From: Nemertoderma westbladi
Taxonomy: Eukaryota; Animalia; Xenacoelomorpha
Length of the DNA: 64,000 bases
Direction: 5' to 3'
NCBI GenBank assembly: GCA_032718475.1
Contig: JAUCBJ010002497.1
Location: 62,001-126,000 of the forward strand
The notes under the pieces are model-generated. The model was not told the origin of the DNA. It was given only the letters and a program-made list of their open reading frames with translations, and did not search any database. The position numbers were made by a program, and so were the translations under genes. Positions 26,966 to 62,261 of the stretch are shown one piece after another; the stretch's first letter is position 1, and each line of letters begins with the position of its first letter.

Positions 26966-26976
26966 GTAGGAATATG
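26966..26976 (+). promoter_or_regulatory. E2 primer-binding-site position, complementary to its own LTR rather than tRNA-like
   Basis: gtaggaatatg is the reverse complement of catattcctac at 25927-25937 and 56959-56969. Confidence 0.75.
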
Positions 26977-29567: not shown

Positions 29568-30057
29568 CAGTTTACATCGCAATCTACGACTTCGAGGAAG
29601 ACCTGCGAGCCTACCGAACAATGGAGACCAGTGGATACGCGACCGTTTAATCAGTTTACATCGCAATCTACGACTTCGAGGAAGACCTGCGAGCCTACCG
29701 AACAACGGAGACCAGTGGATACGCGACCGTTTAATCAGTTTACATCGCAATCTACGACTTCGTGGAAGACCTGAGAGCCTACCGAACAATGGAGACCAGT
29801 GGATACGCGACCGTTTAATCAGTTTACATCGCAATCTACGACTTTGAGGAAGACCTGCGAGCCTACCGAACAACGGAGACCAGTGGATACGCGACCGTTT
29901 AATCAGTTTACATCGCAATCTACGACTTCGAGGAAGACCTGCGAGCCTACCGAACAACGGAGACCAGTGGATACGCGACCGTTTAATCAGTTTACATCGC
30001 AATCTACGACTTCGAGGAAGACCTGCGAGCCTACCGAACAACGGAGACCAGTGGATG
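29568..30057 (+). repeat. 84-bp coding tandem repeat (~6 copies) in E2 gag
   Basis: Encodes QFTSQSTTSRKTCEPTEQRRPVDTRPFN; the third copy has TGC>TGA. Confidence 0.95.
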
Positions 30058-33000: not shown

Positions 33001-34544
33001 CCGACAAACCTGATAAAGTACGCGTAGTTAACGACTGCGCGGCCCTGTTTGAAGGAATGTCTCTCAACAGTGAGTTGATGGATGGACCAAACATGAATAA
33101 TTATCTCATGGGGGTGATTATGCGCTTCCGTCAGCGCCAAGTAGCATTTACTTGTGACGTAGAAGTGATGTTTCACCAAGTGCGAGCGTTAGAGCGAGAC
33201 AGAGACAGTTTGAGGTTCCTCTGGTACCCGGATGGAGACTTAAGTCAACCACCGGCGACTTACCAAATGCAAGTTCGCGTTTTCGGTGCCAGGGACAGCC
33301 CAAACTGCACTATGTACGCCCTAAAACAGACTGCTAGGGATCAGAAACATATGTATGACCCAGAGGTAATCCAGATCGTTACAGAGTTGTGACACAGTAG
33401 AAAGTGCTATAACAGTAACACATCAATTACGGGACTGTTTAGCAGGCGGAGGTTTTAACCTCACTAAGTTTGCCTCAAACAGCACTGAATTGGTAAATTC
33501 ATTCGAAACGACTGAACGTGGGGGTGGGGACATTGACTTAGAGTTCGAACCACTGCCGACGACCAAGGTGTTGGGACTATTTTGGGACCCGAACACAGAC
33601 AACTTTCGAGTGAAAGTAAAACTGGACGCTGAAGGAGATTCTCTGACAAAGAGGTCTTGCTTGTCGAAACTAAGCAGACTGTTCGACCCTTTAGGTTTCA
33701 TCAGCCCAATAATACTGCAAGCAAGAATATATATGCGCAGTATTTGGAAAGATGGACTGACATGGGACGAACCGATCTCATCCGAACAAGTGGACTTATG
33801 GAAGACTTGGGAGGCGCAATTATCTTCGCTAGAGGATTATTCCATACCCCGGGTGTACTTTCCATTACAGACGACATTTCCTGACAACTTAGAATTACAT
33901 TGTTTTTCCGACGCCAGTGACAACGGCTTTGGTGTGACAGCGTACTTGCGCAGACAAGTAGACTCAGACGAGTTTGATATTTCGCTCATTACTTCTAAGG
34001 CTAAAACAATGCCTACTAAGTATATGACGACACCACGCGCTGAGCTACAAGCCGCAACTCTGTCAACGACCATTGTAAACCTCATACAGACGGAACTACA
34101 GTCAAGTTTACAGATATTTTATTGGACTGACGCGACGTTAGTTTTATTTTATATAAACAACGACACACTTGAATTCAAGACATTCGTAGCTAACCGTCGT
34201 GCAGAAATTCTAGACCGTTCAATAAAGGAAGATTGGCGACATTGTCCCGGACCACAAAATCCAGCCGATATTGCGTCACGAGGAATGATGCCTGAGGAAT
34301 TCTGTAAACCGGAAAACAAGAAATTTTGGCAACACGGACCACAATTCTTACAAAGAGCAACACAACATTGGCCGCCACTTTATGATAACAAGTTTAATAC
34401 TATTCCTAAGGACGCCGAAATTAAAAAACCAAAGAAAGGTAAAGCGAAGAAAAAGACAACGGCGAAACTTAAGAAGAAACCAAAGGCGAAATGGAAGAAT
34501 ATAACTCACAAAGTTAGGGCAGGAAGACTTGCGAGCCTTTCTCA

Positions 34545-34750
34545 ACCAGACGTATCGCCAGACGGTCAACCAGACATGTTACCAGACGGTCAACCAGACG
34601 TATCGCCAGACGGTCAACCAGACACGTTACCAGACGGTCAACCAGATGTATCGCCAGACGGTCAACCAGACACGTTATTAGACGATCAACCAGACATTTT
34701 GCCAGACGTGTCACTAGACGTTTTGCCGGATGTTCCGCGAAACATTTTAC
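34545..34750 (+). repeat. 24-bp coding tandem repeat (PDGQPDVS/TL) in the E2 RNase H-integrase linker
   Basis: ccagacggtcaaccagac(g/a)... units. Confidence 0.9.
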
Positions 34751-37384
34751 CAGACATTAGTAACGTAGCGACACATAGTAAAGCCGCAATTTCCCTATTG
34801 GAGCGGCCTTCTATTGACAAACTACCAAACTTGACACCCTTGAGTAACCATAAGTACATTGAAACCTCATGTATTACAGATGTGGGTAGTACCTACGCTA
34901 ATGTAAATACAGGTGTTACTTTACGCTCAAGAGACATACCAAACTTACAACCTACGGTGAGACCTGGGATTAATATCGGCAGAAAAACAAATTTACCGAA
35001 ACCCAGTGATCCCATAGAGTTAAAACCACCATTAGGGATCGACGCACAAAGTACTGACAATCAAGGTAAGAAGACGAAGAAGGACAAATTACTTGTAGAC
35101 CCGGACGGATCAACAGTCAACAAGGGAATACCTACCGGCGGACTCGTGGGCCCATCTAGTAAAACAAAACCTTCCAAATTCTCCATTGACTTACCTGATG
35201 ACGTCACAAATACTTACGTCGACCGTATTGTAAACCTAACAGATTCTTGGACCAACGCGTGCCGAAAATTAGCGTGGATTGTACGTTTTGTACAGTACGT
35301 TAAAGGCAAACGCGACTTTACACGTTGACTCACATTGACTGAGATTGACAGATGTGAAATTAAATTAATTTGCCATTATCAATTGCGATATTTCGCGCGC
35401 GAATTCACATCTATAAGTCAAGGTCAACCAATCAAGTCGTCACCAATATTGAGTTGGAGTCCGATTATTTATAATGGCTTAATTTGTCATAAATCTCGGC
35501 TTCAAAAATTGACTTTAATACTGGTTTTAGGTACCCAATAATAATACCGCAACATCACGAATTACAACGTGCAATGATACTGGACACACATTTACATCTG
35601 AAACACGCTGGAAGACACCACTGTCTTTCCTACTTACGTACAAGATTTGTATTAATTAGACCCAGTAAAGCGTTAAGTTCAGTGACGCGTATGTGTATTA
35701 TTTGTAAAAAGGTACATTCTAGAATAAGTACCCAAGAAATGAGTGAACTTCCACAAGCACGACTACAGGCATTCAGACCACCTTTCACAGAGACTGGAAT
35801 TGACTGCTTTGGTCCCATACATACGAAACGTGGACGTATACTAGTGAAACGCTGGGGACTGATTTTCACATGCATGTCCAGTAGGGCAGTTCATATTGAA
35901 CGTGTGATGGATCTTTCCACCAACGCCTTTATACTAGCATTGCGGCGATTTATCGCTAGACGCGGACTAGTAAAATGCTTGTACTCAGATCAAGGTACAA
36001 ACTTTGTTGGTGCTCGAAATGAAATTGCTAGAGCCTTTAAGAAATTAGATCATGATCAAATCTCAAACGAACTACGTCCTTACAAGATTGTTTGGAAGTT
36101 TAATCCTCCAGATAGTCCATGGAGAGGCGGAGTCTGGGAGAGATTGATTAGATCTATAAAAACAGCCATGGCAAAAGTAATTCCAGTAAACCACATCTTG
36201 ACAGACGACCAACTGACAACATTGTTTGTTGAAATCGAGGCAATACTAAATACTAGACCAATAGTATTAGTACCCGATGACAAACAATCCCAGTTTGCTT
36301 TAACACCGGCACACCTGCTTATGCAGGCACCGACCACATTAACGCCTATTTCTATTCCAATAGAAAGCGATAGCTACGGTAGAAAAGCGTGGAAAATCAC
36401 GCAACTACTGGCTAACAAATTCTGGGAAATATGGCAAAATCACTATTTGCCCTCTATTTCTGCCAGAACTACCTGGTACAACAAAACTCGCGCTTTAAGA
36501 GTGGGAGATCATGTGCTGTTGGCAGAAGTGAATCTAAAAAAACGCTTCTGGATAACAGGTGTAATTTTAGACACACATCCATCTATGGATGGAGTGATAA
36601 GAACTGTGACTGTACGGACAATTGACGGTCGTACAGTAGACAGACCGACACAACGTCTCGTACTTCTTGAAGAGAAGCGAAACAAGTCTGGAGATTACAA
36701 GTCTCCAACAAATGTTAGTAAATAGTAAGGAGTTTACAAATAGATTTCCACGTACCTGTACACCGTAGTAAGGACAGCGGTAGAATTCCATTGTCTTTAT
36801 ATGTGAACATTGATGGTAGTACCCTTATGTGTCACATAGGAGCGGGATTTGTAGGTATAAGAAATGGAATTCTACTTGGAACTCACAATATTGAGACATT
36901 TTCGAAATTTTAGACAATCCATTTGGATTTGAAAAATTTTAAAATTTTCTCCAGTGAATAGATTTCAGGGTACAGTCGGGTGGATCTTAAAATTAGAGAA
37001 ACAAGAAAGGAAGACTCGCGAGCCTTTCTTAAATTTTAATTAAATTTTACACGGTCTTGTTTCAATAAGTTACGTCGAATAATAGACTTCCCTATATTTA
37101 TTACTAACTCTTGATTGCTTATTTTCTGATAATAGTTTGGGATCAAAAAGTGAGTATTTTAGACTCACAGCCAGTTTAGCCCAAATTCGTTTTTATTTCG
37201 GCAAAAAATTTTAGATAAGAAGCAGCGTGTCATTAAAGAAACTCTAGATCTTAGGCTATGGGTAGGAGGTTAGAGCGTTGTCGAGCCAAAAGGGCAGACG
37301 AAAACTCTCACATCTCCTCACAACTAACAATAAACTCTGTTGTATTCCCTCTAGTAGTATGATTATGTAACCATACCTCTAATA

Positions 37385-38156
37385 ATGGCGAAGGGGATAC
37401 AAGGAGAGCCGAGATGGGGATATGATATCCAAGAGGAAGCAGCAGCGCCATTCGAACGATTTGGAACTAAGGATTACACTATATTTGGAATAAAGGATTT
37501 ATCAGAAAGTATAGCGAAACTCGCAAAGACCAAATATGACTCAAATGTATTAAAGAGAAGGCAAAATGCGTTAAATGAAAAAATCGAAAGTTTACGTAAA
37601 ACCTTCAATGAACTTTACCCGTACGACGCTTTATGTGATACGGGAGATATTAGCAAAGATCCCGATACCGAAATTAGTCGTTTGTATCATACTATGCAAT
37701 ACCTAAAGGCACATGAACCTATGCCCGCGGTACGCGATGAATTCGATGGAATGCATCTTTACAGACGAACTCGAGGGGACGATAGAGAAACAAAGGAAGC
37801 ATTTTCAGTTTATAAACTTTATTATCAATGCGGTGCTTGTATGCGCGAACAACGAAATGCGATTTCGATGCGTTTAAATAAGGAAAATCCCGAACCGATA
37901 TTGGTGAGGTGTTCGAACCATCAACAACTACGCTACCAGGAAGGAGGGTATCCTTTATCGAATCCATATCATTCATTCGCTATGACTGGACCAAAGGCGG
38001 GAGAAATTGTCGTTTACCCACCTAAGGTTGTTGAACCCGATGTATTCGAACTTACGCTGGACGAGGCGACTCAGTCAACCCGCGAAAAGAAAGAAGCTCT
38101 TAGCCTATACAGAGCCTACAAGGCTTTCGAGAAAGGCGAGATGGAAGAATGGGGCG
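37385..38156 (+). CDS. E2 accessory ORF2, N-terminal part (interrupted by E3)
   Basis: 257 open codons up to the GGGCG TSD; continues in frame at 52280. Contains CGAC...CSNH, a putative Zn site. Confidence 0.85.
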
Positions 38157-39369
38157 TGTAAAAGCCTTTGCTGAATTGCCCCGTTTTTTATATTATCTTT
38201 TACATTAAAATACTCTGTAGTTGATTTAATAAGTGTAAGAGACCGTATTATTGCTGTATCGGTGTTTTTAGAGGATCTAAGACCTATTTCCTCCGTATGT
38301 GTACTGTGAAAGGCATATTTTATGATTCTATGGCAATTCGTGACGCAAAGGGGTGATAGCTACTCTTGAACAGTAGTTACTATGACTACGGTTAACAGCT
38401 GACATTCATACGTGTTGATTTCCTTTGTTCTACGGCGTCTCTCAGTTCAGTCAGCCAATGAGAGCGTTTTTGTGGCTCCTTGTACAGAAAATTTCCGAGA
38501 AATGACGCAATGCCTATGTGCAGTGTTTACATTCAGTCTTGAGCCAAAGAAAGAACGGCTTGGAAGTATTTTGTGCTGTACTGCTTTTTAGTCGTACACT
38601 AGTAGGTTTAATTATAAAGGGCATATATCCTTTAACAAACTGACTACTTGAATATCTCATGCCTATATCTCATTGCTGACATACCGGTACTGACTTGTTG
38701 TTTTATACTGCTATTTGCTGTCAGTTCTTCATAATATGGTTGATGAATAATTATATTTGGAATAACGATAAATAACCCCGCAACCCAATATTCTTGATAT
38801 ACCTAAGGTAAGAGAGAAAGGTTACCAATAACGATTGTGACTTATGTTAAAGTGGTTTGAAGTGAATCTAATGTTATTTGATAGACCCTACATGAGTCAG
38901 CCTGTGTTCCTTTTATATGTGACTAAAATCATTGAAGATTGGCAGATTAGTGTGCAGTATTGTGCAGCATAGTGTATGAGTGAGTCTGTTAAAGAAGCAA
39001 TTCCTAAAGAATGCGCCATATATGTGAATTAATTAAGCCATATCGTTGTGAGTAGTTTAAGTCATAACTCTGTTTATGTAGATAAAGCGCCACGTCCTAA
39101 AGGAACTGTTAATATTACCGAAGGTGAATAATATTGTCAGAGATTATATAGTACTGTCAGTCGAATAATACATTAGGCTTACATAGCAATAAAAATTAAA
39201 CCGTCGAACCCAATCTCCCGGGAATATCCAGCGGGTGAATGGTCGCGCACGGATTGGTTTCGACTAGTGTAGTGAATCAAATACTTGTCATAGACTAAAA
39301 AGCGATTTATTATCTAGAAGACATTCTAATTTGGCGGGTTAAACTGCCAAAGGTCTGAAAGCGCGAACA
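38157..39369 (+). repeat. E3 5' LTR (1213 bp)
   Basis: Direct repeat of 51058-52274; its 3' ~700 bp are homologous to the E1 LTR. Confidence 0.96.
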
Positions 39370-39381
39370 TTAAAGGATATA
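39370..39381 (+). promoter_or_regulatory. E3 primer-binding-site position, complementary to its own LTR
   Basis: ttaaaggatata is the reverse complement of tatatcctttaa at 38624-38635 and 51525-51536. Confidence 0.8.
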
Positions 39382-39719
39382 GCTTCTTTATTGCAGTAAG
39401 CAATAAAGTCGAAAGTACCGGTCGACCGGTAACCAGTAGGCCTGACTGCCTGATCATCCGGACCGGTACCTACTTCCGTATAAGTACAGCAGTATTATTC
39501 GATTTGATTATATATGCCGGTAGGTCTTAATAATTAATCGGGGACGCCTGGTTTTTATTGGGATTTTACTTAGGCCTATTTCTGTCAGTTTTATTTGTTT
39601 GTAGGCCAGTATTGAACAGAAGGCGTGTAAACCTGATCAGATTGTACAGACAATTTGTAGGCTGAGCTGTTGTCTGATTGCTGTTGAGTCCGAACGAATT
39701 GCAGTGTGTGTAGAGCACT

Positions 39720-40200
39720 TGTCCGATTAAGTACGATTAGGAAGTAGGGGCAGCCACGCTGTAAGGTAAACCCCCAACTAAAGAATAAGTCGCACTACTG
39801 GGTTAGAGCGCATACTCCCTAATCATTTCGGAGTCTGCATGTCCTGTAGTTTATTTAGGCTTGAGAGTAGTCTGCCATCGTTTAGTCTGTACTTTGTTTG
39901 TGTAAGTCTGTACGGGTAGCGTATAATTTTATTTAGATAACTTGTAGGCTGGATAGTTGTCTGGCTGTTATTAGGTCTGAACGGATTGCCGCGTGTGTAG
40001 ATCATCTGTCCGATTAAGTACGATTAGGCAGTAGGGGCAGCGAACGCTGTAAGGTAATCCCCCAACTAAAGAATAAGTCGCACTACTGGGTTAGAGCGCA
40101 TACTCCCTAATCATTTCGGAGTCTGCATATACCGTAGTTTGTTTAGGCTTGATAGTAGTCGGTCAGTGTTCGGTCTGTATTTTGTTTGAGTAGTGTGTAC
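39720..40200 (+). repeat. Imperfect direct duplication (~190-bp unit, ~287-bp period) in the E3 5' leader
   Basis: tgtccgattaagtacgattagg...catactccctaatcatttcggagtctgcat at ~39720 and ~40006. Confidence 0.85.
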
Positions 40201-43200
40201 GCGTAGCGTAATATTTATTATTCAGAGTTTATGCGATTATTCGCAACATTCAAGTCCCCAAGTTTGTTCCTACAGTAATTGTGTTTGTTATACATACCGC
40301 TATAGTTAAATTAACCTCGGTACTACACGGGCTGCTCGGCGTAGGTAAAGACTGGTGATTTTGTGCATCGGTCACTCCAGCAGATGCCGTGGTTCTTTTA
40401 GCTGTTCAAGTATATTTAACTACTGATTATTTGTTGTACAAGTACTCGTACCTAATCTAGGGTTTAGTGTACCGTACTTTCCGAAGTAATTATTGTAGGC
40501 ATTATATTTGTGTTGTAAAGTGGTTGATAGGCACATTCGATTAGCTCTATTAACTTCTAGGTAGGAACACTCCGTGATACATAACGTAGAACCTATAGCG
40601 ATACGGCTATAGGTCGTCAGGCGGTGGTATTTTCCTATCTAGACAACGCAGTGTATTTACTACTACTTATTATTTCAAATACCGTAGTACCCTGTCCGCT
40701 GTAATAATCAGATTTCTAACCCTTTGTTAGGCTGGTTTGTAGACTTCTTGTAAAATTACCCTAAAAATTCGTATTTTGCGTTTTTGTAAATTTTTGTGTT
40801 TATTTAGAGATTGTAATCTCAACCCGAATTGTACGTAATTTGTAGTATTAAGTAACTTAGGTAAATTAGTATTATTTGTTTTAGTGTCCTGTACGTAACA
40901 CTTCACTGAAAGCGCACAGCTTTGTGTAGTGATTACTCCCCAGAAATAATAACATTTATTTCAAACATTGACAAAACCCATTAAAACGGGTATATATAAA
41001 TTATAAATCAAATCTAACGATTTATAAATAGTAGGCCTACCATATAACAATTAGGTCTCAATATCAGTTGGATTACTGCTCAAATAACGGTAATAAAGTA
41101 AGTAAAGTAACAAAGTAACCCTAAAGTAACAGAAATTCAATTATTTGAAATAATTGATATACCGGTATTTACGATAGGCCTATTATCTTTATTTCTATAA
41201 ATCTAGGCTGAAATTATACCGGTACTTGTAATTAATTCTATTTCAGAATTATATATCCTACAAACTGTAAGCTGTATACCGGTATTCCGATAGGCCTATT
41301 ATATATTTATATATATTTGTGCTAAAATTATACCGGTATTCTGTGATAAACCTAGTCTGTAATAATACTTATATAGTTATATATACTATAAGTATACCGG
41401 TATTCTAATATATTATATATATATCACGCTACACTGAGTAGCAGTAACGGTAATTAATTACTAGGCTATCAGTTAATACTGAGTTACTAGACTTGCTCAG
41501 ACTGTAATACAGCAGTAGACATTCAACTGTACACACAAACATGTCTGACGCAAAGCAGAACCTGTCAGACAGTCTACTAGATACAACGGAGAGTGAAGCG
41601 ACAGCAGAGAAACCGCATAAGAGGGATGCCATTGATATCTATCTGTCAGACTATCAGCGTTTTGTGGGAGATGAAGAGTTGAGGAGAAGGCTAGAGGGAC
41701 TTAGCCCTAATAGCGAAGGAGCCAAACTTGTGTTAGATGCGATTGATGTGGATAGATTAGCGGCGAACCAAGCTAAATTCGATGAACAACTCCGCATCGC
41801 TAGAGAAAGGGAAGAACAAGTAAAGAAAAAACGCATAGAAGACAGAAAGAAAGCAGCAGTGGTAGCTGCAGAAGCAGAAAGAAAGGCGGCAGCGGCCAAG
41901 GCAAAGGCGGCAGAGGTAGCGGCCAAGGCAAAAGCAGCAGAGGCAGCGGCAGAGGCAAAAGCGGCAGAGGCAGAGGCAGAGGCAGCGGCAGAGGCAAAAG
42001 TGGCAGAAGCAGAACGGAAAGCGGCTGAAGAAACCACCCAATTAGAATTGGAAAACATTCAGGAGAATCAAGACTGCATAAATAAACAGTTAACAGCTAG
42101 TAATATGCAGATGATGAATCGATCTACTCCTAAACGACAAGGTTATACATCATCCGAGGAAGGCGATACCACCGACACTGAAGGCGGAGTAAATCGATCC
42201 CGCTTAAGCAGACGTAAAAGAACATTCCACCGACCGAAATTGCCTGATTTGCCTCCAGCTGTTAGAAGGCAACTAAATAACAACAACTTAGAGAGTACAG
42301 AACCCACAGACCAAATAATTACAATAGAAAGACTCCCTACTATAGTAGATGAGCCTGAAATAATTAGGCCTGTTCTTGAAATCACCCCTTCGGTGATAGA
42401 CATACCTGTGCTCCCTGAAACTACCTCTAAATTCCCTCTGCATAGCACTAAGCTACCTGTGCCCCGCAGAACTGCCCAGGAGACAGTTCAGGTCCTGGAC
42501 CCCGAGCGAAATATTCACAATTTGTCGCCCGTTGTCCCTCGTCCGCCCGCTACGACGTTGGCGGATCCCGTTTCGGCGGTTGATTGGGTAGACGAGAGAC
42601 GGCGGGGGATGGATATCCTGCTCGGGCAGATGCAGGAGACTGTCCAGCAATTCAAGGGCACAGTAAGGGAAAGTAGGCTAGAGTTGCAAGAAGTGCAGCA
42701 AAGTATCGCGCTTGAACGCGATAAATTAGTAAACACCCAAAAGGGTATACCACCACCCTCTGTAACAATGTGTCAACCTGTTAGGTCTGAAGTATTGCAT
42801 GCGCAAGGTGTGGAGCCTACACGCATATATACTGCTAGCGAAGTAGAAACTCCTATAGTGAACCCTATTAAGGGTAATTATAGACCTGTTGATAATGACA
42901 TTCCCTATAGACCTGATCATAATCCGAGAAATTTATATACCGATAACTCGATATTAAATAACACGATGGCCCAAGAAAGTTTTACGCGTCAAATGGCTAG
43001 AACCGAAGCCCGGCAAGCGGTGAAGGTGGGAGAGATAGTCAAATTCAATGGAGATGAGATGAAATGGTTACCTTTTAATTAATATTACAAAGATAACATA
43101 CAGAACTCTGTACTATCTAATGGAGAAAAACTTAGATACCTCATCGAGTGCTTGGAAGGATCTCCCAAGTTAATGGCGTTAAAGTTTATTGGACATCCAG

Positions 43201-44705
43201 ACGGATTAAGACAAGTTTGGGACACGCTAAACATCAGGTATGGTAATAGGAATAATATCGCTAAGTATTTATATGCAAAATTAGTAGCGCCCAGAAAGTT
43301 CATCAGCAGCGGGATAATAGAGTTTTCCGATGAGATTCAAGAGATCTGTAGACAATTAGATTGGTTAGGTAAGTCTCATGAATACCAAAGTTCTATGGTC
43401 ATTGGAGCTGTGGCTTCTACTTTACCGAAAGGTGGGGTAGGCACACGCTGGGATAAGAAAGTACTTTATATGATGGAACAACAATGACGAGACCCTACCA
43501 TGGCTGATCTCATGTCATTCTTAGATAGAGAAGTGAAATTACAGCTCCTAAGGCAGTCCAGAGAGAAGACATTGGAAAACAAGGTAAGTGAGAAACCCGT
43601 TTCTAGGAGAAGGGTAATACCAGTATGTTATACCGACGACGGTGAAAGCCAAACTTCTCAAGGAGAGGACAGCGGGAAAGACACTGACAGAGCTTATGTC
43701 AATAAAATGCCTAAAGATCAGGTAAGTAAATCCAAGTCTCGACCCAATGACAGAAGGGAACCGGTACAAAAAACCCCTCCTACGTCTCCTAAAAGAATTC
43801 AGGTGAGAAAGCCCGAGGAAAGAACAAGTGTGCACCACATAGCACAGGTTAAAGTAAGTAACATCAAGCCCAAATGTGTGCTGTGCGACGGGCCCCACCG
43901 TTTAAATGCGTGTGATAAATTCCTGAGGAAATCACTAAAGGATAGACGTGAAGTCATGTGGGATAAGCGGTTGTGTTATAATTGCCTCAGACGAGGACAC
44001 CAACGGCGAACCTGTAACTCCGACGCAAGGTGTGCAAAGTGCGGCGCAAAACATCATATCTTGTTGCACACGGAATTCGAACGAAACAGCCCGAGTCAGG
44101 TAAGTGAGTCCGAACTACATGTCCAATTCAGTGATGTGAACGACACTGATCAATCAGAGATGGAAGGATTCTATACGGACGAGTTCTCCGACCAAAACGA
44201 ATCCTGTTACCTAATAAACACCACCGCAGTGTATCGAGCACTCGTGTATGAGAAAGACACAGACAGCGACCTTACCTTAACTACTTCCGATCAACAACCA
44301 TCTTGGAAAGCGCCAACTTCCAATATAGGAATCCGAGAATTTCCTGTAGTCCAGTTACGGGTCCACGGACCTCAGAAGAGCTATATAGTGCACGCCCTCC
44401 TGGACTCCGGTAGCACAGGAACATTCATCGATAGGGAACTAGCCGAAGTCATCTTTGCTGGACAACCCAAGTTCCGAACCAAGCTAAACATGTCAGGGAT
44501 CATGCAGGTTTGGAATTCTACTGTAGCTGCCGACTATTATATAGGTGAGTTGTCCACCCCCCAGGACGAACTAGGAGAACATAGCATCAGGTCAGTGAAA
44601 ATGGTGGCTATAAAGAACTTCGCTACTACTCAAGCAGACCTTTATAATTGGGACGAGGATGAGAGCATCCAACATCTTAACATACCTCGATTCCAGACTG
44701 ATTAC

Positions 44706-47118
44706 TAGGGTGGAGTGAAAAAAAAATTTTTCTTTATTTTTAAGGGAAGCACTATTTTTCTGATGCCAAATCGGTCTAAACTATCTTTGCAAAAAAAAAT
44801 TTTTGATTTCGAAAAATTCTAAGCGGGCCTCACGACACTTGAAAATTTCAAATTTTTGAAAAGGCAATGCCAGTTTTGAAAATCCCAGATATTTTGTATT
44901 TTTGATAAAGGTAAGGGAAGATGCAAATATTTAATGTCAAATAGGTAGGAAACAAAAACAAAATGTGAAATTGTGATTTTTATATAAATCTACCCCAGCC
45001 TCATGGCCATTAAAATTTTGCAAAATTTGCCAAATTTCACCCTTAAAATACAGCAAACCTACTTTGTAGTCTCTATAGTTGAAATCGATTTACTACTGGG
45101 GTTTGGAGTTCTTCCTGAGTGAAAACCAAGTCCCCTGATTTGATTACTACTATATTTTAATACTAGAAACCCAGCTAGCTGGCTGTGAATTTACCTTTGG
45201 ATCAAATTCCCAATAAGTATATTATAAACAACAGTACTGTAGGTATAGGAAGAAGGATAATTCTAAATTACGAAAACACTAGTAAAACAGTAAAGCAATA
45301 GAAAAACAGATGAGAAACACTGTAATGCACCAGGAAAAAGTAAAAATATTGATCAACAGGAAATTTAATACATGTATTACACTGAATTGGTATTCTTAAA
45401 TGTACTCCTCGCATAGCACACCATTAAGTAATCTCCGTAAAACATAGGGACAACTATAAACTGTCCAGAAAACAGTGAAAACATGATTGGCATTAAATAG
45501 CATTAAATTTTACCTAATATACTGCTAAAAAATAAGTTGACAGTGTCTAATACTACACAGAAACCATTGTTGCCCGGCAACCAAGGAACAGTAACCAATC
45601 AGCATGCATTTCAACAGTTTTACTGGTCAGCCGGTAGAGGCACATTAATGGTGTATTCTGGTATTAGTGTATTCCAGTATTCAAGTATTGTTAGTGTTGG
45701 ATCTTGTCATCTGCTAAATGTTGAACAGTTAAAGTGCAGATGTTGCGGTATTTAATATTAAGACAGCAAAAGGGCCACAGTTAGGTCCTACCTACAGAGA
45801 TACCGTAGTGAAGTGGCATACCAGTGTGGCTAGAAGCGCGGATGCAAGATCTAGAACACATCACACATGATGTTCTAGTCAGTTCGGTTTTCTGGTATGA
45901 ATGGTATCCTTAATAATAAATACCACAACTTCTGCACTTCAACTGCCAACATTTAGCAGATGAATTGATCTAACACTAACAATACTGGAATACACTATGT
46001 AATTCCAGAATACAGCAACACAGGTACTACTGGCTGACCAGTAAAACAAGGATAGTGCTGAAATGCATGCTGATTGATTTCTTCTTTCACCTAGTATTAT
46101 TAGCAGCATATCAAGCAAACAGTTGAGGCGACCCGAAGGCTCCTCTTTCGATAGATGCTACCGAGGGTAGGGGTGGGCACTACTATTATCCCAAGATTTG
46201 CTCCTAGTTATTTAACTGGTACTCAATTTATCGACCCCAGTGGATGAAAGGCGACTGAGTGGACCCTGGTGGGGCTGAACCTACAACCAATCGATTGCAG
46301 GCCTGGTGCTCAGCCAATTGAGCTACCCCGCTTTCTAGCGAAATATAGGTAAAATTTCACAGTTGTCCAGAGGGTTTATAGTGTTTTCCCTATGTTTTAC
46401 GGAGATTACTTAACGTGTGCTATGCGAGGAGTACATTTAAGATTGCCAATTCAGTGTAATCGATGTATTAAATTTCCTGTTGATCAATAATTGTAATGTT
46501 TTTCATATGTTTTTCTAGTGCTTTACTGTTTTACTAGTGTTTTCCTAATTTAGAATTATCCTTCTTCCTAGACCTAGGCCTACTGTTGTTTATAATATAC
46601 TTTATTGGGAATTTGATCCAAAGGCAAATTCACAGCCAGCTAGCTGGGTTTCTAGTATTGAAATATAGTTGTGATCAAATCAGGGGACTTGGTTTTCACT
46701 CAGGAAGAACTCCAAATCACAGTAAATCGATTTCAACTATAGAGACTACGAAGTAGGTTTGCTGTATTTCTAGGGCTAAATTTGGCAAATTTTGCAAAAT
46801 TCTAAACGCCATGAGGCTGGCAGGGCTGGGGTAGATTTATATGAAAATCACAATTTCACATTTTATGTTTGTTTCCAACCTATTTGACATTAAATATTTG
46901 CATCTTCCTTAACTTTTATCAAAAATACAAAATATCTAAGAAATTCAAAACTGGCAGTGCCATCCCAAAAATTTGAAATTTTCAAGTGTCGTGAGGCCCG
47001 CTTAGAATTTTTCAAAATCAAAAATTTTTTTTTGCAATGTTAGTTTAGACCGATTTGGCATCAGAAAAATAGTGCTTCCCTTAAAAATAAAGAAAATTTT
47101 TTTTTTCACTCCACCCTA
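44706..47118. mobile_element. hAT-like non-autonomous foldback DNA transposon (~1-kb inverted arms)
   Basis: 8-bp TSD CTGATTAC; termini tagggtggagtg / cactccacccta; arms inverted to within ~150 bp of the centre. Confidence 0.93.
46111..46331 (-). mobile_element. tRNA-derived SINE inserted in the right arm of the foldback element
   Basis: Minus strand: tRNA-like head gcggggtagctcaattgg...ggttcagcccc, central cactcag..cctttcatcc..ggggtcgataaattgagtacc typical of conserved SINE domains, tail gagccttcgggtcgcc. Absent from the left arm. Confidence 0.8.
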
Positions 47119-49693
47119 CTGATTACCCTGGAGTGCAAATACTCATCGGCCAAAACGCGCATGAGGCGCTGGAGACATTAGAGAAACGGCCTGCTCAACC
47201 GCAGCCCCTACAGACCTATGCGGTAAGAACTAGAGTAGGTTGGTACCTTACTGGACCTTCCCGTAGAACGCTCAGGGAAAGACTGCTTCAAGATCGCGTC
47301 TGCCAGGTGAGTGAATGGGAAGATGATACTAGTGAGGGAGACGACCCAACTGAGGGAACACCACACTCCTCAGATAATGACAATCTTAGCTCCAATGTAG
47401 ATCAATGGAGATATTGCCCCAAGAAGTTTAATCCAACGGACATCGCTTCCAGAGGAGCAACTCCTCAAGAACTGACAGATACTATAGACCGGTTAGGTGA
47501 ACCCGACTTCCTGAGTAAGGAGAATGAATGGCCTCCCCATCTTACTCCGACTGAGATTAGACCAGCCAAGGGAGCGGAGAAAGTCGAACCTGAAACCCGG
47601 ACGGGTGGATCGGAGTTATTTGAACCCGGGATAGATCTGTCGGTATTACATGTTGCCAGGGACGACGCCGTGGATCTGGGCCTCCCCTCCGCGAGTGGAT
47701 CCTTCATGAAGATCAGAGAGAGCGATTGGAGCTCTGGAACATCAGACGTCTCGCAGGGACTCTCACCTCTCCTGCAGAGAGCGACGGACCACTATAGCTC
47801 CTGGAATCGGCTTTGTGACGCCGTCATATACTTTGAGCGATGTTTCTATCGTCACTATTCCAGGACGAAGAGGAAACCTGGAATTGTATTCAGGATGCAG
47901 CGACTCAATCACCCAGTCGGTCGTTTGTGTTTATCGGAAGGGAATGGAGGACTCTCCGGAAACTGTGGAAGGCAAGATTCTCTTCCCACGACCACCTCCC
48001 TAATCCTTCAAACATCTAGGGACTCCATAACGTAACAACATACGGAGTGGGTGTGTGACTCTATTATTTTATATTATTTTATTATTTTTATATTTATGTA
48101 TGTATTACTATGTAATTCTATTATAATCGTTTTCTTTAATTTTATTCAGTAGAATGTTATTTTAGCGATTATTTAGTAGATTAGTGCAATATATATTCGC
48201 GTTTATTACTTAATTACGTATATATTATATTTAATGCGACGGCAAGAAATAATTCTTTTCCTTCTTCCTTACTGTCCGTATTACATTACAAATACGTAAC
48301 TACAGTAAGATGAAATGTCCGTACTTATTAAAGTACGATAAAGCCACTACTATATTCAAGTATTATTGGTAGGCAGAGTATTAGGAATGCAAAGTTCAGA
48401 TCCTCGTGTCTCGGCTAAACCAAGCTCTGGGTAGACCTTGGAAACGACTTGCCTCTTCACACTGACATTGCTTCGTGCGATATTGCTCTCATACCGTATA
48501 TTAAATAATACATATAGTAGCGTGATGTCCCTTTAACAGTAGCGTATAACGCAAAATAAATCTGTTAAACCCTTTGACCATCTGTAATTCTAGTCGATTA
48601 AGATATCGCGGCACCCACCGATATACTTGAAAGACAAATTCTAGAATCAGTGGTTAACGTCCCCAGACAAGTTCTGGAATAAATCGGTGCCCATCTCAAA
48701 TATTAATTAATTAATATTTGCAAAATCTAATAAATCAAAATCTGTAAAATTCAGATCCTTCAATAATTCTAGTCAATTAAGATATCGTAGTATTTACCGA
48801 TATTCTTAAAAAGACAATTGTCATAGAATTAAGGATCTTGTGTCCCCAGACATGTTCTGGAATCCAAATATGTCCATTTAATTATCAAATAATAAAATTT
48901 CAGGGAATCAATTTAAATTCATGCCTTTTAATGAATTTAATAAATTGCCATTTTTACGCAATTTATAAAGTTCCCAAAATTCCATTAATTAATAGATCAA
49001 GGGAGCGGAGATTTATCTTAGCATGCGTATGAGTGTACGAAAGTCTCCCAAACATAGTCAATAGCCGATAAAATTCATAAAGTCATGTATAAAACAGAAC
49101 ATTGACTATTAAAGAATTACTATTAAATAACATCCCAGATCTGTATGCATTGGAATCACCCTAATTCTACCGCTAGCTTTGCATAATGTCACCATAGCAA
49201 CAACCACGCTAGAATTAGAATTGAGTTAAAAGAACAATAGAAAGCTTGTCCCATTGAATAGCATAGGGAATAAATAGCGCACTACTAGTATCCAAGGATA
49301 CATAATAATACAGTGACATTCTGGAAGGCATTGACTAACGGACAAGTGACCCGAGTGTGTGTAATTTGTGACAAGTTGTGTGTGTGGTACTTGTGAGCTT
49401 ATAGGCGAATGTTACTACTAAGGTGTGTTTACAGTAGCAAGTCGCAATCGTAAAGTAACCTAACTCTCCAAGGAAAACCTGAAGTACATCTAAGCCTTTG
49501 GGACGGACAGTTGAGTGACTTGTGCCGGTTGTCGTTGTCGTTGTGCGGCTACGTCGTTGGCGAAAGTACAGCGGCGACGACACATCGGCGCTGAGGATCT
49601 CGTACTGTCCGGGGGTTAATTGGAGTAGGCAGCGACGCCCGCTCGCCTAAATGTGGACTCATTATAATATGGACAAACTCATATATAGCAGAT

Positions 49694-50900
49694 ATGACGG
49701 AGTTGATAGAAGATGGTCTTGGTATCGGGGAGCGATATACTCTACTTTTGCAAGCGTTTGTTGATAGCTTAATACGCGGCGACGTTAGTCCAACTGCTGC
49801 GGAGGACGATGGTCGTTATATCGAACCGCCAAGGTCCCAAGAGCAGCTCACGCGTGAGTTGGACTATAGAAAATTCGCTGCTCGATATACGCAGCGTAAT
49901 GGTACGTATATGGGCTTCTTAACTACTGGTCATCCTATCGATTTACACAATACGGACTATGTCGACTATATATCCTGCCCAGCGGAGTCGGAACCATAAA
50001 CTGAAATTCGAATGCGAAAATTCTATTCGAAATCGACTCGAAAGAAAAGACACTAAAGAAACAAATGGACGCGGTAACTCCAACGTATATTTGGAATTCT
50101 TGATAGAAGCATTGTAACAACAAATAAATATCACCCGCGTTTACCTTACCAGACGTGCGTCTTTGGTATTATTACGATAAATGCCCTAGACCCAACTAAT
50201 AAACGGAAAGACATAAACATCCACGTAAACCGAAACTTGTTGACGTATCACCTATGCTCACTCGGCTCGAACGATCCTGGAGTAAACCTACGATCAGAGT
50301 CCCGGAATACTCGGTCAAACCTCCTCATTCCTTAGTTGGACCTCAGACCTGCGATCTTGGTGGTGTCGCGGATCCTCGCGGACTGTATTCACTGTTCAAA
50401 GATCTAGTGCTACCCTAACAATTAATCGGTAACACTCCGACAGTGATTTCTAGCTAGCCGCCCATCTTACCTAGCCGGATTGTGACGCGGACACCTAATA
50501 TCACTACCCAACCGTATGGTCGTCCACGTTTAACGCGATACAACCCCTCATCAAGGTGAAGGAGAGCATTGTACGAAACGAGTTAAACGCTATTTTATAA
50601 AGATCAAAAAGGAAACCTGCGTTTGTTCAGATAAACGTAAGTTATAACAGTGAGTCCAATCGATACACGAATTGGCCTTATCTCAATTCGATTGGGAAAT
50701 CCAGAATCTCTAAGAAGTTATCGAACTTGGACAATCCTATTCTCTGCGAGAGTTTTTGGATGAACGTATCCAGCTACGAGCGGAGGAAAATCAGCTCGAG
50801 GAGAAGCATATCGAAACGGCAGATACTTCGACCACAATCCTACACCTTCTGATGCAATCATATTGCACCCTTCACCCAGGAGTTATGGCCCTCCTAGTAA
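49694..50900 (+). pseudogene. Degraded accessory ORF remnant of E3
   Basis: Homologous to E1 21200-22408 (MTELIED...QLTRELDYRKF); multiple stops and frameshifts. Confidence 0.55.
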
Positions 50901-51057
50901 AGTGGCTCCCCCCAAAGAGAAAAGGACTCTTGCTAGCCTCAAAAAACTGCGTAAACGCCGTCTGCGTAAGAAAGACTAACTGTTTAGAGTATCTTTATGT
51001 TTTAGAAACTGTGATTTTTATATTTTATAGACTGAAAATCCCATTTTCTGGGAGCGG

Positions 51058-52274
51058 TGTAAAAGCCTTTGCTGAATTGCCCCGTTTTTTATATTATCTT
51101 TTACATTAAAATACTCTGTAGTTGATTTAATAAGTGTAAGAGACCGTATTATTGCTGTATCGGTGTTTTTAGAGGATCTAAGACCTATTTCCTCCGTATG
51201 TGTACTGTGAAAGGCATATTTTATGATTCTATGGCAATTCGTGACGCAAAGGGGTGATAGCTACTCTTGAACAGTAGTTACTATGACTACGGTTAACAGC
51301 TGACATTCATACGTGTTGATTTCCTTTGTTCTACGGCGTCTCTCAGTTCAGTCAGCCAATGAGAGCGTTTTTGTGGCTCCTTGTACAGAAAATTTCCGAG
51401 AAATGACGCAATGCCTATGTGCAGTGTTTACATTCAGTCTTGAGCCAAAGAAAGAACGGCTTGGAAGTATTTTGTGCTGTACTGCTTTTTAGTCGTACAC
51501 TAGTAGGTTTAATTATAAAGGGCATATATCCTTTAACAAACTGACTACTTGAATATCTCATGCCTATATCTCATTGCTGACATACCGGTACTGACTTGTT
51601 GTTTTATACTGCTATTTGCTGTCAGTTCTTCATAATATGGTTGATGAATAATTATATTTGGAATAACGATAAATAACCCCGCAACCCAATATTCTTGATA
51701 TACCTAAGGTAAGAGAGAAAGAAAGGTTACCAATAACGATTGTGACTTATGTTAAAGTGGTTTGAAGTGAATCTAATGTTATTTGATAGACCCTACATGA
51801 GTCAGCCTGTGTTCCTTTTATATGTGACTAAAATCATTGAAGATTGGCAGATTAGTGTGCAGTATTGTGCAGCATAGTGTATGCGTGAGTCTGTTAAAGA
51901 AGCAATTCCTAAAGAATGCGCCATATATGTGAATTAATTAAGCCATATCGTTGTGAGTAGTTTAAGTCATAACTCTGTTTATGTAGATAAAGCGCCACGT
52001 CCTAAAGGAACTGTTAATATTACCGAAGGTGAATAATATTGTCAGAGATTATATAGTACTGTCAGTCGAATAATACATTAGGCTTACATAGCAATAAAAA
52101 TTAAACCGTCGAACCCAATCTCCCGGGAATATCCAGCGGGTGAATGGTCGCGCACGGATTGGTTTCGACTAGTGTAGTGAATCAAATACTTGTCATAGAC
52201 TAAAAAGCGATTTATTATCTAGAAGACATTCTAATTTGGCGGGTTAAACTGCCAAAGGTCTGAAAGCGCGAACA
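51058..52274 (+). repeat. E3 3' LTR (1217 bp)
   Basis: Direct repeat of 38157-39369, followed by TSD GGGCG. Confidence 0.96.
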
Positions 52275-52279
52275 GGGCG

Positions 52280-55230
52280 GAAGACTCGCGAGCCTACCTT
52301 ACCATTGGACGTCACACGATCAAACTTCAGCTAAGGAGATGACACCGGAAGTTTTCGAGAGTATAAACTTTGCTCAAAACGTTATTCAGAGACTACAGAT
52401 TGCATCCCTGGAAAGGACAAGAGAAATGCAACCGTATAGTACTTCAACTACGAAACCATTGAGTACGACACTCAATTTCCCTATTAGTATACCAGTTCGA
52501 CAAGATACAACGTATGAAATACCTATTGTGGATCATCCGGAAATCATTTCGAACTTAGAGTTTCTTCCTGCAGTTGTTCTAAGCGATATGGTTAAGATAT
52601 ATGATTTACGTAGACATATTACGCAAAAGGTCGTGCATAATGTTCCGCCTCATATTCAAGACTTTAGGGAACTGGATAGAGCTGGCGCTGATATAGCTCC
52701 GAGTAACCTGAAAGGATATTTAACCAAAACAATTCGCTTATGGATTGGAACAGGAACCTTTGAGTCGGATACAGATATCGCTGCGGACTGGCAAGGTAAA
52801 GTCATTCGTTTCGAGGACGAGAAAGACATAGAGAAGATTTGGCAACCTTCGGAAGAATTATTGGACGAATGGAATAGGACGTTTAGATCGTTTCAGGAAA
52901 ACGGTTACATGTTTTATGATAACGAGGGCGGCAGCCATCAGCAGAGTCTAACCTCCAAGACTATACAAATTAGAGCGGCAGACGGAGTTTTGCACATTTT
53001 CAGTAGACAAAGGAGCGACAAGCGAATGCCAATACCTCCAGGAACTACAAAGCGGCACCATTTCATCACAAATATAGTAAAGAAAATGGACCAGGCTTGC
53101 AATATCGATGCTAAAATGTTACCAAAGACGGTGAGAAATATGATTTTAGATAAAACTGTTGTAAAGATTGGATCAGGAGTAAGAGAGGACTTAATTAGCG
53201 ACTTCGCCGGCATTTCGGACAGTGACGACCGATTACCGACACCTTACGTCGACACTCGACCTCTTATACTGTGGTCTATAGAACAAGGATACTTTCGTGA
53301 GTATGATACTCAGAAAACCGGAACTGGATATATTTCCTACTTGATGTTTAATTGGGATTACAAGGAAAGTAAAAGAACAAAGTATATCGAAACGTATGGA
53401 GAAGGTGATACTCCAGATATAAATGAGTTTGAATCACAGCTCAAATGGAGAGGATGCGTATATTGGGCTATTACTTCACCTCCAAGAGCCATACTACAAT
53501 ATTATTTAGCGATAGAGTCATCAGTGAATGTTTGCTTAGTCGCCGACATTGTGTCTCGGACTCTTAAAAGACATCCACTTTGCCTCGGAGAAGATCATAC
53601 ATTCCACGCGGAAGGGAGAATTCATACCGATGTGTTTAGATGGTTTCTCGAACCCTTCTACAATTCCGACGCTCAGTGTAATGCCTTCACTCGAGCAGGA
53701 TTCAGTATATTTCGAGACGTGTATCTTCGCTGTGCGGGATCTCTTATCGAAAGACCATCTATGTTTACATTGTTACCCTATGAAGGAGAACGTATCATGG
53801 AGCTTACTGACGAATCACGGCAGACGCGTGCGCCTATCGGTCACTTAGGTGATGATTTCGAAGTAACGACGGCCATCGATGATCCTTTAGAGGAACTTCT
53901 TGAGATTGAAAGGAACCTCCCGAAGAAATCTCAGGCGGAGATTCGACAACTAGAAGCAACAGATGCTGTAGTTTGCATACAACCTTCTGAAACATACCAA
54001 CCTATCGACCCAGACGATTATGACTATAGTGTGGGAGGAAGCGCTCGACCCATTGGCGATCTTATATATGAGCGAGTGTGGTACCCTGCTAATACGATGT
54101 GTGGTAAATGTGGCGTCGCTGGACATCATTCAACAAAGTGCAGTGGAAAGCACATTACTACGACTCAACTGATTTGTGGGTGGTGTGGAGATCAAGGGTC
54201 CCATACATTTTATACTTGCTGGAGATTTATGGCTCAATGCACATATTGCAATATAAAGGGACATCGAGCATCTGAATGCCAACTGAGAGACATACCTTAC
54301 GAACACGAATCTGTAAAACTCGTGCGAAAACTATTTGATGAGTGGGAAGATTTGGCTGACGAACATGTAGCAGCGCAAAGAAGACGGTTCCCGATGAGAG
54401 CGCATCTTGGATTTTGGGTGGTAAATCCTCAAACTATGATGTCGGAAGGATATATCTCCGCTATGCCGCAATATGACGAACTCATCGAGGTAGTTGATAT
54501 TTTGCCTCACGATAGTGGATTCCGAGTTGTGCGCGAATATTTGTTACAGATACACCCTGACAATAAGAATACATGGAATTTCCAGAAAGTCGTTAATCGT
54601 ATCACCTATGGTGAATTTGATCGGTTCCGAACGGAAAAGCGGAACAAGGGAGCTTGGTTAACCGTTGCATGGGCGTACCGAGCCGCGTTCTACCATAAAC
54701 GTATACGAGCGAGCGTATTCGAGGAAGAGGAGGTCCTAGAGGCGAACAACATACCAGCTACTCCGGTCGCGCCATCTGCACGTCACCCTCGGGAGGACGG
54801 ACAGCACAAGATCATACGGGTCCAGAAAGTGGGCCAACAGTTAAAGAAAACTATCAACGTTGAAGAACGAAGGGGATACGAACCGACTATTCGAATTACT
54901 CGGGATACGGTTTCGCTTCCCAGAGAACCGCAAGGAGGATCGGGACATATACCAGCTGATCAAAAGGGGGCGCAAGCTTCTCTTGGGTCTGCGTCGTCCG
55001 CTTCTCGCGCGTTCCCAGACGTTTTACCAGCGGTAGATACAACAGATCGGTCACGAGGGATTGGACGAGGATTTGGGATAACTAAGAGACGAATATGTGA
55101 GGAAATGGTCGTACCATCTCCCAACGTCCAAAGTAATCCAGTGGCTCGCCCCACAAGTCCCATATCACGAGCTAAATCGCCGATACGCAGTTTTCGAGGA
55201 CGCGGCAGGGCTCGATCCGCTAAGCGTTAA
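52280..55230 (+). CDS. E2 accessory ORF2, C-terminal part: DEDDy (WRN/Mut-7/EXD-like) 3'-5' exonuclease domain, three CCHC knuckles and an Arg/Gly-rich tail
   Basis: ExoI MFYDNE, then TIQIRAADGVLHIF. ExoII LPKTVRNMILDKTVVKIGSGVRED, then YVDT. ExoIII-like W....PPRAILQYYLAIES. Knuckles CGKCGVAGHHSTKC, CGWCGDQGSHTFYTC and CTYCNIKGHRASEC. Ends FRGRGRARSAKR. Confidence 0.72.
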
Positions 55231-55369
55231 AGCGGGAAGGAAGGAGTGGACGGAAGACTCGTGAGCCTTTCTTATGAATTGTTTGTTTTATGTATTGTTT
55301 TATGCATTGTTTAGGTAAATCAAATTGTTTATGTAAATTGAATTATTTATGTAATTTGTATTGTTTAAA

Positions 55370-55675
55370 ATTTATATTGCTCTAAATTTATACAATTTAT
55401 ATTGTTCTAAATTTATGCAATTTATATTATTCTAAATTTATGCAATTTACATTGTTCTAAATTTATGTATTTGTATTGTTCCGAACTTATGAAACTTAGA
55501 AAGTTTATATTTAGAAGGAACTTATATTTGAAAGATTTATATTTCATATTTGAGATGCAAAGAGTTTATATTATTCTAAGCTTATGCAGTATTATTCTAA
55601 GCTTATGCAGTATTATTCTAAGCTTATGCAGTATTATTCTAAGCTTATGCAGTATTATTCTAAACTTATGCAATT
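55370..55675. repeat. Short 21-bp tandem repeats in the E2 3' UTR
   Basis: attgttctaaatttatgcaattt and ttattctaagcttatgcagta units. Confidence 0.85.
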
Positions 55676-56160
55676 TAGTAAAGATTTATATTTAGAAAGT
55701 GCTATATTTGTAGTCATTCCAAACTTACGCAATTTATTGTTTCGAATATTATGCAATTTATATTTTGTAAAGAAGCAGTATTTGTATTTACAGTAAATAG
55801 AAGGCAAGAGCAGACGGAAGACTTGTGAGCCTTTCTTGTGATTTATTTTGAACTTATGCAATTTGTTTTATATTTAAGTAGTATTAGTATTTGTGATTGT
55901 TTGAATTCATGCAATATTTGAGATGCAATAGATTTATTTTAGTGAATTTAATTTAGATTTATATTGTGCTTACTTAATAAAGCCTTAAATACGTAAAGTT
56001 TGAATTTGTAATTATTTGTATCGAATTATTATGTAAAGGTATTATTGTTGAGATCTAATTTGTAAATATGTAAGTACGTCCCAAGTATTCTATAGTTTGC
56101 TTTAGTATTGGTGAAAACCGTATATTTTATGCACAATAATATCCTGTTTTCATGGAGCGG

Positions 56161-57997
56161 TATAGAATTATATTCTCTAAATGGCGTGGATTTTCAAAAT
56201 TTTATTTTATTCGAATTAACTTTGTTATAAAGATTACATTAAGTCCTCATTTGTATTTACTATATCTATTTGTACGATGATTATTCAAGTGGTTCAGTAG
56301 CTCAGTCGGTAAAGCGTTGGAAATTATATGTAGTAGGTATTGAGTTCGAATCCTTGTAGGTGCGAATTATTTTTTGTGCAGAATTTCAACTCATTTAAAT
56401 TGACCACTACAAATTAAATTGCATTTGCCTGTACCTAGATTAACCAATGGGACTGTAGTTATTAGATAGTAACCAATGTCGTGCAAGTTGTATATTCGCT
56501 GGACCAATAGTTATCTTTAAAAACCTATTAGAACTCATAGAACAATCGAGAATTTTCTCGATTGATTGCAGCACAAATTTGCTATATAAGGTGCGATTTC
56601 GTTCATTAGTTATTCTAATTAGTTTATAATCTTTTGTAATAAAAGTTAGAAATACTTGTTACATCTGCCCTTTTCTATCATGTTTTACTACGGTGAACTT
56701 AACTGAGGGACAAGATGGCAGGCTAAACATCGGGCCACAGCAGTGAACGGGAACATCTGAGGAATGTAGACAGGAGACAACCCGCAATATCATTCTTGAG
56801 TTATTCGCCCATCGCCTGAAAGGTTAGACAGCGTTCAATGCCTTGCTACCTAAGTATAAGACCAAAGATCGAAGGTAGAGGTAGTGACACGCTGTGCGCT
56901 AAAAATTACATCTAGGGACCGTACTGTCTTAATTCAGAGAAAACCCGCGGTAGACCTTCATATTCCTACGGGGGAGAGGAGAGCAGGCAGAGATACTAGT
57001 ACACAGATAGGACGTAGGCACACCGGTACAAGGCATACACATTGGTAGGGTGCAGCAAACTGTACGCCTAACTCTTGCCAAGTACAGGTGCATCTGTGAC
57101 TATTTGTAGTACAACGGTGTCCATTGCATTAGAACTTGTAGGCCAGAAGGGTTACTGTGTTTTACATGAATTAGGATTGTACCGTTCAGGCGGTAGGGCA
57201 GTTTACAACTAGGCGCAAAATAAATTGAGGCTATTTAGGGATACTAACATCTACCGTGTCCCCGCCAACATTCTGTTAGGAAGTTGCCGTACCCATCTAG
57301 GCAACCAAAATTCTAGATAGGAACACCAGGCTAGCTATTAGTAACTGTACGTCTACTGTAGTAAACTAACACATTTCTTCTTAGTATTAGGGACCTGGTA
57401 AATTAAATTGCCGAATTCTGGGCGTAGTATTAACCTTATGCCTGAATTTGAGTCCTGGAAATACAAAAAAGGGAAGGAGCCTTATCATTCGTGAGTATTG
57501 GACCTACAAGTTACAAAATTAGAATATTCGTAAAATGTACACCGGACCCAGTAATTATATATATGAAGGAGCAAAACTGACTTTGACTGTTTAGAATTAA
57601 CACGCGCGTGTTAGAAATTATTTACACCTCAAAATACATAAAATTAACTTTTGTCCGTACTGCGCTTTGCCCGCTAGTTAGACATCTCTAGATCTCTGCA
57701 CCTAGCTAGCGTCTTTTTCGCCCAACCATATAAATCACACAGCGGCAAAGTATACGAGCGCCGTTAGTCCGTCAGTGAGTCAGCCTGATTTTAGGATTCG
57801 CTGCGCGGGATTTTGTTTTATCGAAGTTTGTCCGTTCGTAGACTGTTTTCTGCCTCACCGGTTATAAGAGACCGATACTGCAATATATATTCGCTTACTT
57901 GGAGTTTACTGTTTTGGTGAGAAGGTCGGATTATGATTTGATTCACAAACTTTACAGTAGGATATTGCAGGGTATTTTGTTACTGTCTCTTCGCATA
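56161..57997 (+). repeat. E2 3' LTR (1837 bp)
   Basis: Direct repeat of 25129-26965, followed by TSD TTTAT. Confidence 0.95.
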
Positions 57998-62249: not shown

Positions 62250-62261
62250 TATAACTGTTAT
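62250..62261 (-). promoter_or_regulatory. E1 primer-binding-site position, complementary to its own LTR
   Basis: Element strand ataacagttata; its complement lies at 62986-62997 and 20591-20602. Confidence 0.8.

Follow-up and report, generated by a model that had tools for sequence, protein, structure and literature searches.

The 64,000-nucleotide (nt) window analyzed here (Nemertoderma westbladi, GenBank assembly GCA_032718475.1, contig JAUCBJ010002497.1, positions 62,001 to 126,000 of the forward strand) contains a BEL/Pao retrotransposon, E2, that carries an additional open reading frame (ORF) between pol and its 3′ long terminal repeat (LTR), in the place usual for env. This frame, ORF2, has 1240 codons (3.7 kb) and is a constrained multi-copy gene. 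Judged from its sequence, the product very probably contains a domain with the DEDDy fold of 3′–5′ exonucleases, which is probably active, and the domain is followed by three CCHC zinc knuckles. We tentatively propose that ORF2 is an accessory RNA 3′-trimming exonuclease that may protect E2 against silencing by host small RNAs or against RNA decay, a reading that we regard as quite possible but short of probable.

ORF2 and its copies

Comparison of the window with itself identifies three nested LTR elements, with E3 lying within E2 and E2 within E1. E3 (38157–52274, plus strand) is a BEL/Pao-like element without reverse transcriptase (RT), has TG...CA ends, is bordered by GGGCG at 38152–38156 and 52275–52279, and interrupts ORF2. 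The 5′ piece of ORF2 (37385–38156, plus strand) has 257 codons, reads M...MEEWG and belongs to no known family; in the ESM Atlas, these N-terminal 257 amino acids (aa) have no match above 0.77. The 3′ piece (52280–55230, plus strand) is open for 982 aa in a frame that matches the 5′ piece. Removing E3 and one GGGCG joins the two pieces in frame, as a reading of the sequence alone had proposed, and gives 257 + 1 + 982 codons.

The region 36700–56200 was compared with all contigs of four public runs from three samples. In two of the four runs, contigs join 38151 directly to 52275, skipping 14123 bases, and an uninterrupted ORF2 is therefore naturally present in other copies, beyond the one in the window. 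The shorter side of this joint is covered by 255 letters in X4 and by only 27 letters, a weak support, in X2. Pieces aligned to the region numbered more than 121,000, of which 32 are listed; two duplicates were removed, and the pieces, which overlap, do not count as independent. Among the listed pieces, ORF2 shows 788 substitutions against 8 gap letters (11 distinct pieces), while the spacer upstream of ORF2 shows 72 substitutions against 28 gap letters (4 pieces). Thirteen ORF2 differences occur among the 40 shown of 2052, with nine at third codon positions and eight synonymous, where the share expected to be synonymous is 0.28 (P about 0.011). The scarcity of gap letters relative to the spacer and the synonymous excess show that ORF2 is constrained and that its diverged copies keep the frame.

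The sequence-only reading had also held that ORF2 is not env, and this conclusion is supported. The highest 19-residue hydropathy values are 0.59 in the 5′ piece and 1.39 in the 3′ piece, so that a transmembrane segment is not evident, and Pfam and PDB searches returned no fusogen match. A candidate splice acceptor (37324–37354, plus strand), consisting of a branch-point-like CTAAC, a pyrimidine tract and TAG, lies 30 nt before the ORF2 ATG.

The predicted exonuclease domain

The predicted DEDDy-type (RNase D/EXD2-like) 3′–5′ exonuclease domain spans 52880–53540 (plus strand). Its motifs are found where the initial reading had placed them, with the ExoI Asp at 52918 and Glu at 52924, the ExoII Asp at 53188, YVDT at 53245, and the ExoIII Tyr at 53503 and Glu at 53515. 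The ExoI Asp and Glu, the ExoII Asp and the ExoIII Tyr are kept in all three of ORF2 and its two protein relatives, P0002 and P0003, at less than 35% identity. ExoIII, placed by motif and outside the local alignment, reads YxxxE in ORF2 and P0003 and YxxxD in P0002.

A domain profile made from these three sequences was aligned with 11 exonuclease domains of the RNase D/Pol I type, drawn from named bacterial or phage records. The hhalign comparison gives a probability of 82%, an E value of 1e-5 and a score of 43.6, with the ExoI DxE and the ExoII Asp matched, whereas 30 column shuffles score at most 17.5 and the reversed profile 12.9. Searched against the PDB, the domain profile matches EXD2 best (6k17, E 0.011), with two matches in all at E ≤ 10. 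In the ESM Atlas, 24 of 30 domain matches fall in a PF01612 set that scores 0.92 and has the family on 50% of its members; the Atlas thresholds are not measured for protein parts. The EXD2/WRN-exo/Mut-7 group (PF01612) provides the best sequence match to the domain, centered around ExoII (LP...L.D.T..K.G.G..ED); these are host genes, and the match reaches an E value of only 0.011, under the Pfam thresholds.

Several results weigh against the exonuclease reading. At the PF01612 cut-off, Pfam reports no exonuclease in ORF2, its parts, P0002 or P0003, and when the window was searched with a profile built from the 11 reference exonucleases, ORF2 was not recovered. The global hhalign probability is only 19%, and alignment of the domain profile with E. 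coli RNase D alone gives only 3%. A single-sequence PDB search with ORF2 returned nothing meaningful, and two AlphaFold models have a mean predicted local distance difference test (pLDDT) score of 32–33. Since Pfam names no exonuclease and both models are of low confidence, the DEDDy fold is inferred from sequence. The original DEDDy/EXD2-like assignment thus holds up in hhalign, the PDB profile search and the ESM Atlas and finds no backing in Pfam or in the structure models.

The lack of a Pfam or single-sequence PDB match and the low-confidence models would also suit an exonuclease likeness that arose by chance, or an ORF2 that is a passenger host fragment with no role in the element, and each sequence-level support is moderate when taken alone. 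We consider this very improbable, because three different tests indicate the same family, diverged copies show constraint on frame and synonymous sites, and relatives with the whole architecture exist.

The ExoIII Glu of ORF2 and P0003 replaces a metal-binding Asp, a change that may cripple the enzyme. The domain could then have a DEDDy fold but be catalytically weak or dead, and the protein would bind RNA as a scaffold or decoy, in the manner of EXD1 and Maelstrom in the PIWI-interacting RNA (piRNA) pathway. This replacement affects two of the three family members, and the counterpart residue in Trypanosoma brucei RNase D (TbRND), Asp230, binds metal A (PMC7797062). Inactive DEDD derivatives are also described as functioning in piRNA biogenesis (PMC5408684). 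On the other hand, the change is from one acidic residue to another, P0002 has the canonical Asp, and the other four catalytic positions are kept throughout the family in spite of its low identity. A weak or dead domain is unlikely, although its chance is far from negligible.

Zinc knuckles, C-terminal tail and protein relatives

Three CCHC zinc knuckles follow at 54100–54279 (plus strand), as first noticed in the sequence. They have the spacings CX2CX4HX4C (54100), CX2CX5HX4C (54175) and CX2CX4HX4C (54238–54279). A conserved unnamed segment (E.xADE...R...GF; 54330–54550, plus strand) comes after the knuckles and is common to P0002 and P0003. The C-terminal tail had been described as rich in arginine-glycine (RG); it contains two RG clusters (24 Arg and 14 Gly in 182 aa) and, rather than being RG-rich throughout, is basic.

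A search of 1.84 billion protein representatives gave three matches, including P0002 and P0003, which are unnamed proteins from ENA. Both have the domain order of ORF2, namely the acidic-motif domain, an acidic linker, the knuckles and the conserved segment. The pairwise domain scores of ORF2 with P0002 and P0003 are 49 and 41 bits, against at most 26 and 23 in 60 shuffles each. P0001, a coffee protein, was dropped as a relative since its match runs through the zinc knuckles only. Word-based protein searches found either nothing or only P0003, and are weak negatives, as one of them failed to recover its own members. Searched with the ORF2 alignments, neither viral contigs nor metagenome contigs gave a matching locus. 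An E2 integrase search likewise gave no match in viral contigs and found one locus, L001, in metagenome contigs.

Comparison with known systems

The LTR elements Juno and Vesta of bdelloid rotifers are Ty3/gypsy-like and not BEL/Pao elements. DEDDy ORF3s have been reported in these two and in the Athena/Terminon elements (Rodriguez et al. 2017, PMC5408684). As described there, the rotifer ORF3 resembles ORF2 in that it is a non-env frame located after pol, is RNase D-like and DEDDy, lacks a transmembrane segment and is present in a family-specific manner. Its motif is described as DEED (PMC5408684), and ORF2 differs in that the last Asp is Glu. Unlike the rotifer ORF3, ORF2 has 1240 aa, an N-terminal part of no known family and three knuckles.

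In TbRND (PDB 7C42/7C45), as is predicted for ORF2, an array of CCHC knuckles comes after a DEDD exonuclease, a combination that its authors call very unusual; the CCHC fingers bind RNA and the enzyme trims U-tails (PMC7797062). With a longer ORF2 profile, the top PDB matches are the TbRND entries, matched via the knuckles, and the nuclease parts align only below significance. In contrast to ORF2, TbRND is a cellular enzyme of mitochondria, is about 375 aa long, and has a canonical DEDD set and four knuckles near the nuclease (PMC7797062). The Dada DNA transposons are, like E2, mobile elements with a DEDDy exonuclease, and the Dada transposase ends in a CCHC finger (PMC3706591). In Dada, however, the DEDDy domain is embedded in a DNA transposon's DDE transposase, with its four DEDD residues all intact (PMC3706591).

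In the literature covered, which did not extend to Repbase, the original Terminon paper, early nematode Cer papers or most subscription papers, a BEL/Pao element bearing an exonuclease frame did not turn up, and an earlier description may exist. The word “exonuclease” does not occur in the main text of two BEL/Pao papers (PMC3118150, PMC554778). Because DEDDy cargo on rotifer LTR elements is already published (PMC5408684), what is new is narrower than first supposed and consists of the host element, a BEL/Pao, and the greater size of a protein that combines an exonuclease with three knuckles.

E2 as a BEL/Pao element

E2 occupies 25129–57997 (plus strand) and measures 18,746 nt with E3 removed. 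Its 5′ LTR (25129–26965, plus strand) and 3′ LTR (56161–57997, plus strand, with a purine tract just upstream) differ at 20 of 1837 nt. Both LTRs have TA...TA rather than TG...CA termini, flush with a 5-nt target duplication, TTTAT, that lies outside them. The gag-pol frame (27759–36725, plus strand) encodes DUF1759, a triple Cys-His box, protease, RT, RNase H (Peptidase_A17), and integrase with DUF5641, and in this copy it carries breaks near 29774, near 33380 (in RT) and near 35330–35490. The triple Cys-His box (31290–31500) has boxes at 31290, 31407 and 31464; the protease motifs are LDS and LIG, with DSA at 31803, and the RNase H motif DAS is at 33904. Pfam matches to DUF1759 (E 5e-10), Peptidase_A17 (1e-42) and DUF5641 (6e-22) are all over the gathering cut-off. 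A triple Cys-His box in Gag followed by protease, RT, RNase H and then integrase is characteristic of BEL/Pao (PMC554778). E2 shows this order, with integrase last, together with LTRs, a target-site duplication and the Pfam domains of the family.

Repeats are found in several parts of E2. The gag region has 84-nt repeats at 29483–30140. At 34400–35200, within pol, RNase H is separated from integrase by a long low-complexity insertion that contains 24-nt repeats. A 16-nt motif, GGAAGACTYGYGAGCC, has 14 sites with at most two mismatches between 27862 and 55831, where 0.03 are expected by chance. All are on the plus strand and in E2's own sequence, both coding and non-coding; six lie in one tandem repeat, and one copy begins at 52279, at the E3 insertion site. 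The motif could serve as a signal for packaging or for the binding of a protein. By eye, the LTR stretch 25255–25330 resembles the A and B boxes of transfer RNA, but neither ARAGORN nor Rfam found a transfer RNA there.

At 18,746 nt, E2 is well over the usual BEL/Pao size of 4.2–10 kb (PMC3118150). This size leads to an alternative in which the enzyme acts on DNA during reverse transcription, either polishing the 3′ ends of complementary DNA before integration or proofreading for RT, and so permits a long element. DEDDy ORFs are also found on Terminons of up to 40 kb, nidovirus ExoN accompanies genomes of at least 20 kb, and DNA 3′-end processing has been proposed for the Dada DEDDy domains (PMC3706591). 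In contrast, the knuckles suggest an RNA substrate, ORF2 is a frame distinct from pol, and 3.7 kb of the E2 length is ORF2 itself. We regard a role on DNA as quite unlikely.

Self-priming

The E2 primer-binding site (PBS; 26966–26976, plus strand) begins at the first base after the LTR and is complementary to an 11-nt sequence in E2's own LTR (25927–25937, plus strand; shuffle p about 0.0015), which is a candidate self-primer. In E3, the PBS at 39370–39381 pairs over 12 nt with its own LTR at 38624–38635, and the E1 PBS at 62250–62261 is also complementary to its own LTR over 12 nt. A self-complementary PBS at the first post-LTR base is therefore present in all three elements of the window (11, 12 and 12 nt; shuffle p ≤0.0015). 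The E1 and E3 PBSs differ at four positions, and all four differences are compensated at the homologous LTR sites, which provides covariation support for self-priming in BEL/Pao.

The sequence-only reading had suggested that the nuclease trims the element RNA back to the LTR:PBS duplex and so makes the self-primer. DEDD enzymes tend to stall at duplexes, which would suit this idea, as do the self-complementary PBS of E2 and the compensated differences between E1 and E3. The strongest contrary observation comes from L001 (1–7091), a compact BEL/Pao element with one 2082-aa gag-pol frame and 36% integrase identity. L001 has a 15-nt self-complementary PBS but only 37 nt from the pol stop to the 3′ LTR, which leaves no room for a second ORF. 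Since L001 appears self-primed without such a gene, primer-making as the job of ORF2 is disfavored, with the caveat that this is one element and that help in trans is possible. In addition, the self-primer of Tf1 is a cut 5′ segment of the messenger RNA (PMC4600332), and the bases 3′ of the E2 primer are able to pair with the LTR end in a Tf1-like arrangement. Base pairing also did not stop TbRND (PMC7797062). Primer trimming is improbable, and is the least favored of the three functions originally suggested, the others being action against small-RNA silencing and on complementary DNA.

A possible role against host RNA silencing or decay

ORF2 would be an optional helper outside the core replication machinery, as L001 has no second ORF. 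Like env, it may be expressed through splicing to a subgenomic RNA, using the candidate acceptor before its start codon. The knuckles could hold single-stranded RNA and pass the 3′ end on to the nuclease, in the manner of TbRND. The nuclease would then trim RNA in the 3′–5′ direction, and its targets may be small-RNA guides or tails added to the element RNA. An RNA substrate is favored because an exonuclease with a CCHC array is the TbRND architecture, in which the knuckles bind RNA. For an optional, separately expressed RNA nuclease, a conflict with host RNA silencing or decay would fit best.

A precedent for such counter-defense is the arenavirus exonuclease (PMC7968707), and both 3′-end processing and silencing have already been raised as roles of the rotifer ORF3s (PMC5408684). 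The rotifer elements also provide a point against the proposed shielding role, since those that carry a DEDDy gene are still covered by small RNAs and show no clear gain in copy number (PMC5408684). A bolder version of the proposal is that ORF2, P0002 and P0003 represent an undescribed, widespread retroelement-borne exonuclease-knuckle family. Its members would be the first enzymatic suppressors of piRNA or small interfering RNA known from retrotransposons, or else a trans-acting proofreader that, like nidovirus ExoN, enables almost twice the usual BEL/Pao size. We consider this version rather unlikely.

Other features of the window

E1 lies on the minus strand, with LTRs at 19867–20993 and 62262–63399 and an AAAAG duplication, so that the whole stack spans 19867–63399. 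The E3 LTRs are 99.6% alike. Gag matches were found in both E1 and E3, and a protease match in E3, but an RT match in neither; both elements probably depend on an autonomous partner. A DEDD profile had no match in E1 or E3, which is uninformative since both are non-autonomous.

Within E3, an insert of ~2.4 kb with long inverted arms (44692–47132) is skipped by contigs of all four runs and is probably a foldback element or a DNA transposon. Outside the stack, long single open frames at 242–3604 (plus strand) and 5848–7548 (minus strand), with Tudor/PHD_5 and SPRY/RING domains, are apparently host genes.

Implications

The ORF2 of E2 extends exonuclease capture from rotifer elements to BEL/Pao and suggests repeated recruitment of such enzymes by unrelated mobile elements. 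The question of what this cargo does dates from 2017, and the present case offers a compact natural domain, a natural Asp/Glu variant pair and, as a control, a BEL/Pao element that lacks the gene. If ORF2 proofreads, it would bear on the limits of retrotransposon size. Should it act against small-RNA silencing, it would add a new weapon to the conflict between transposons and their hosts.

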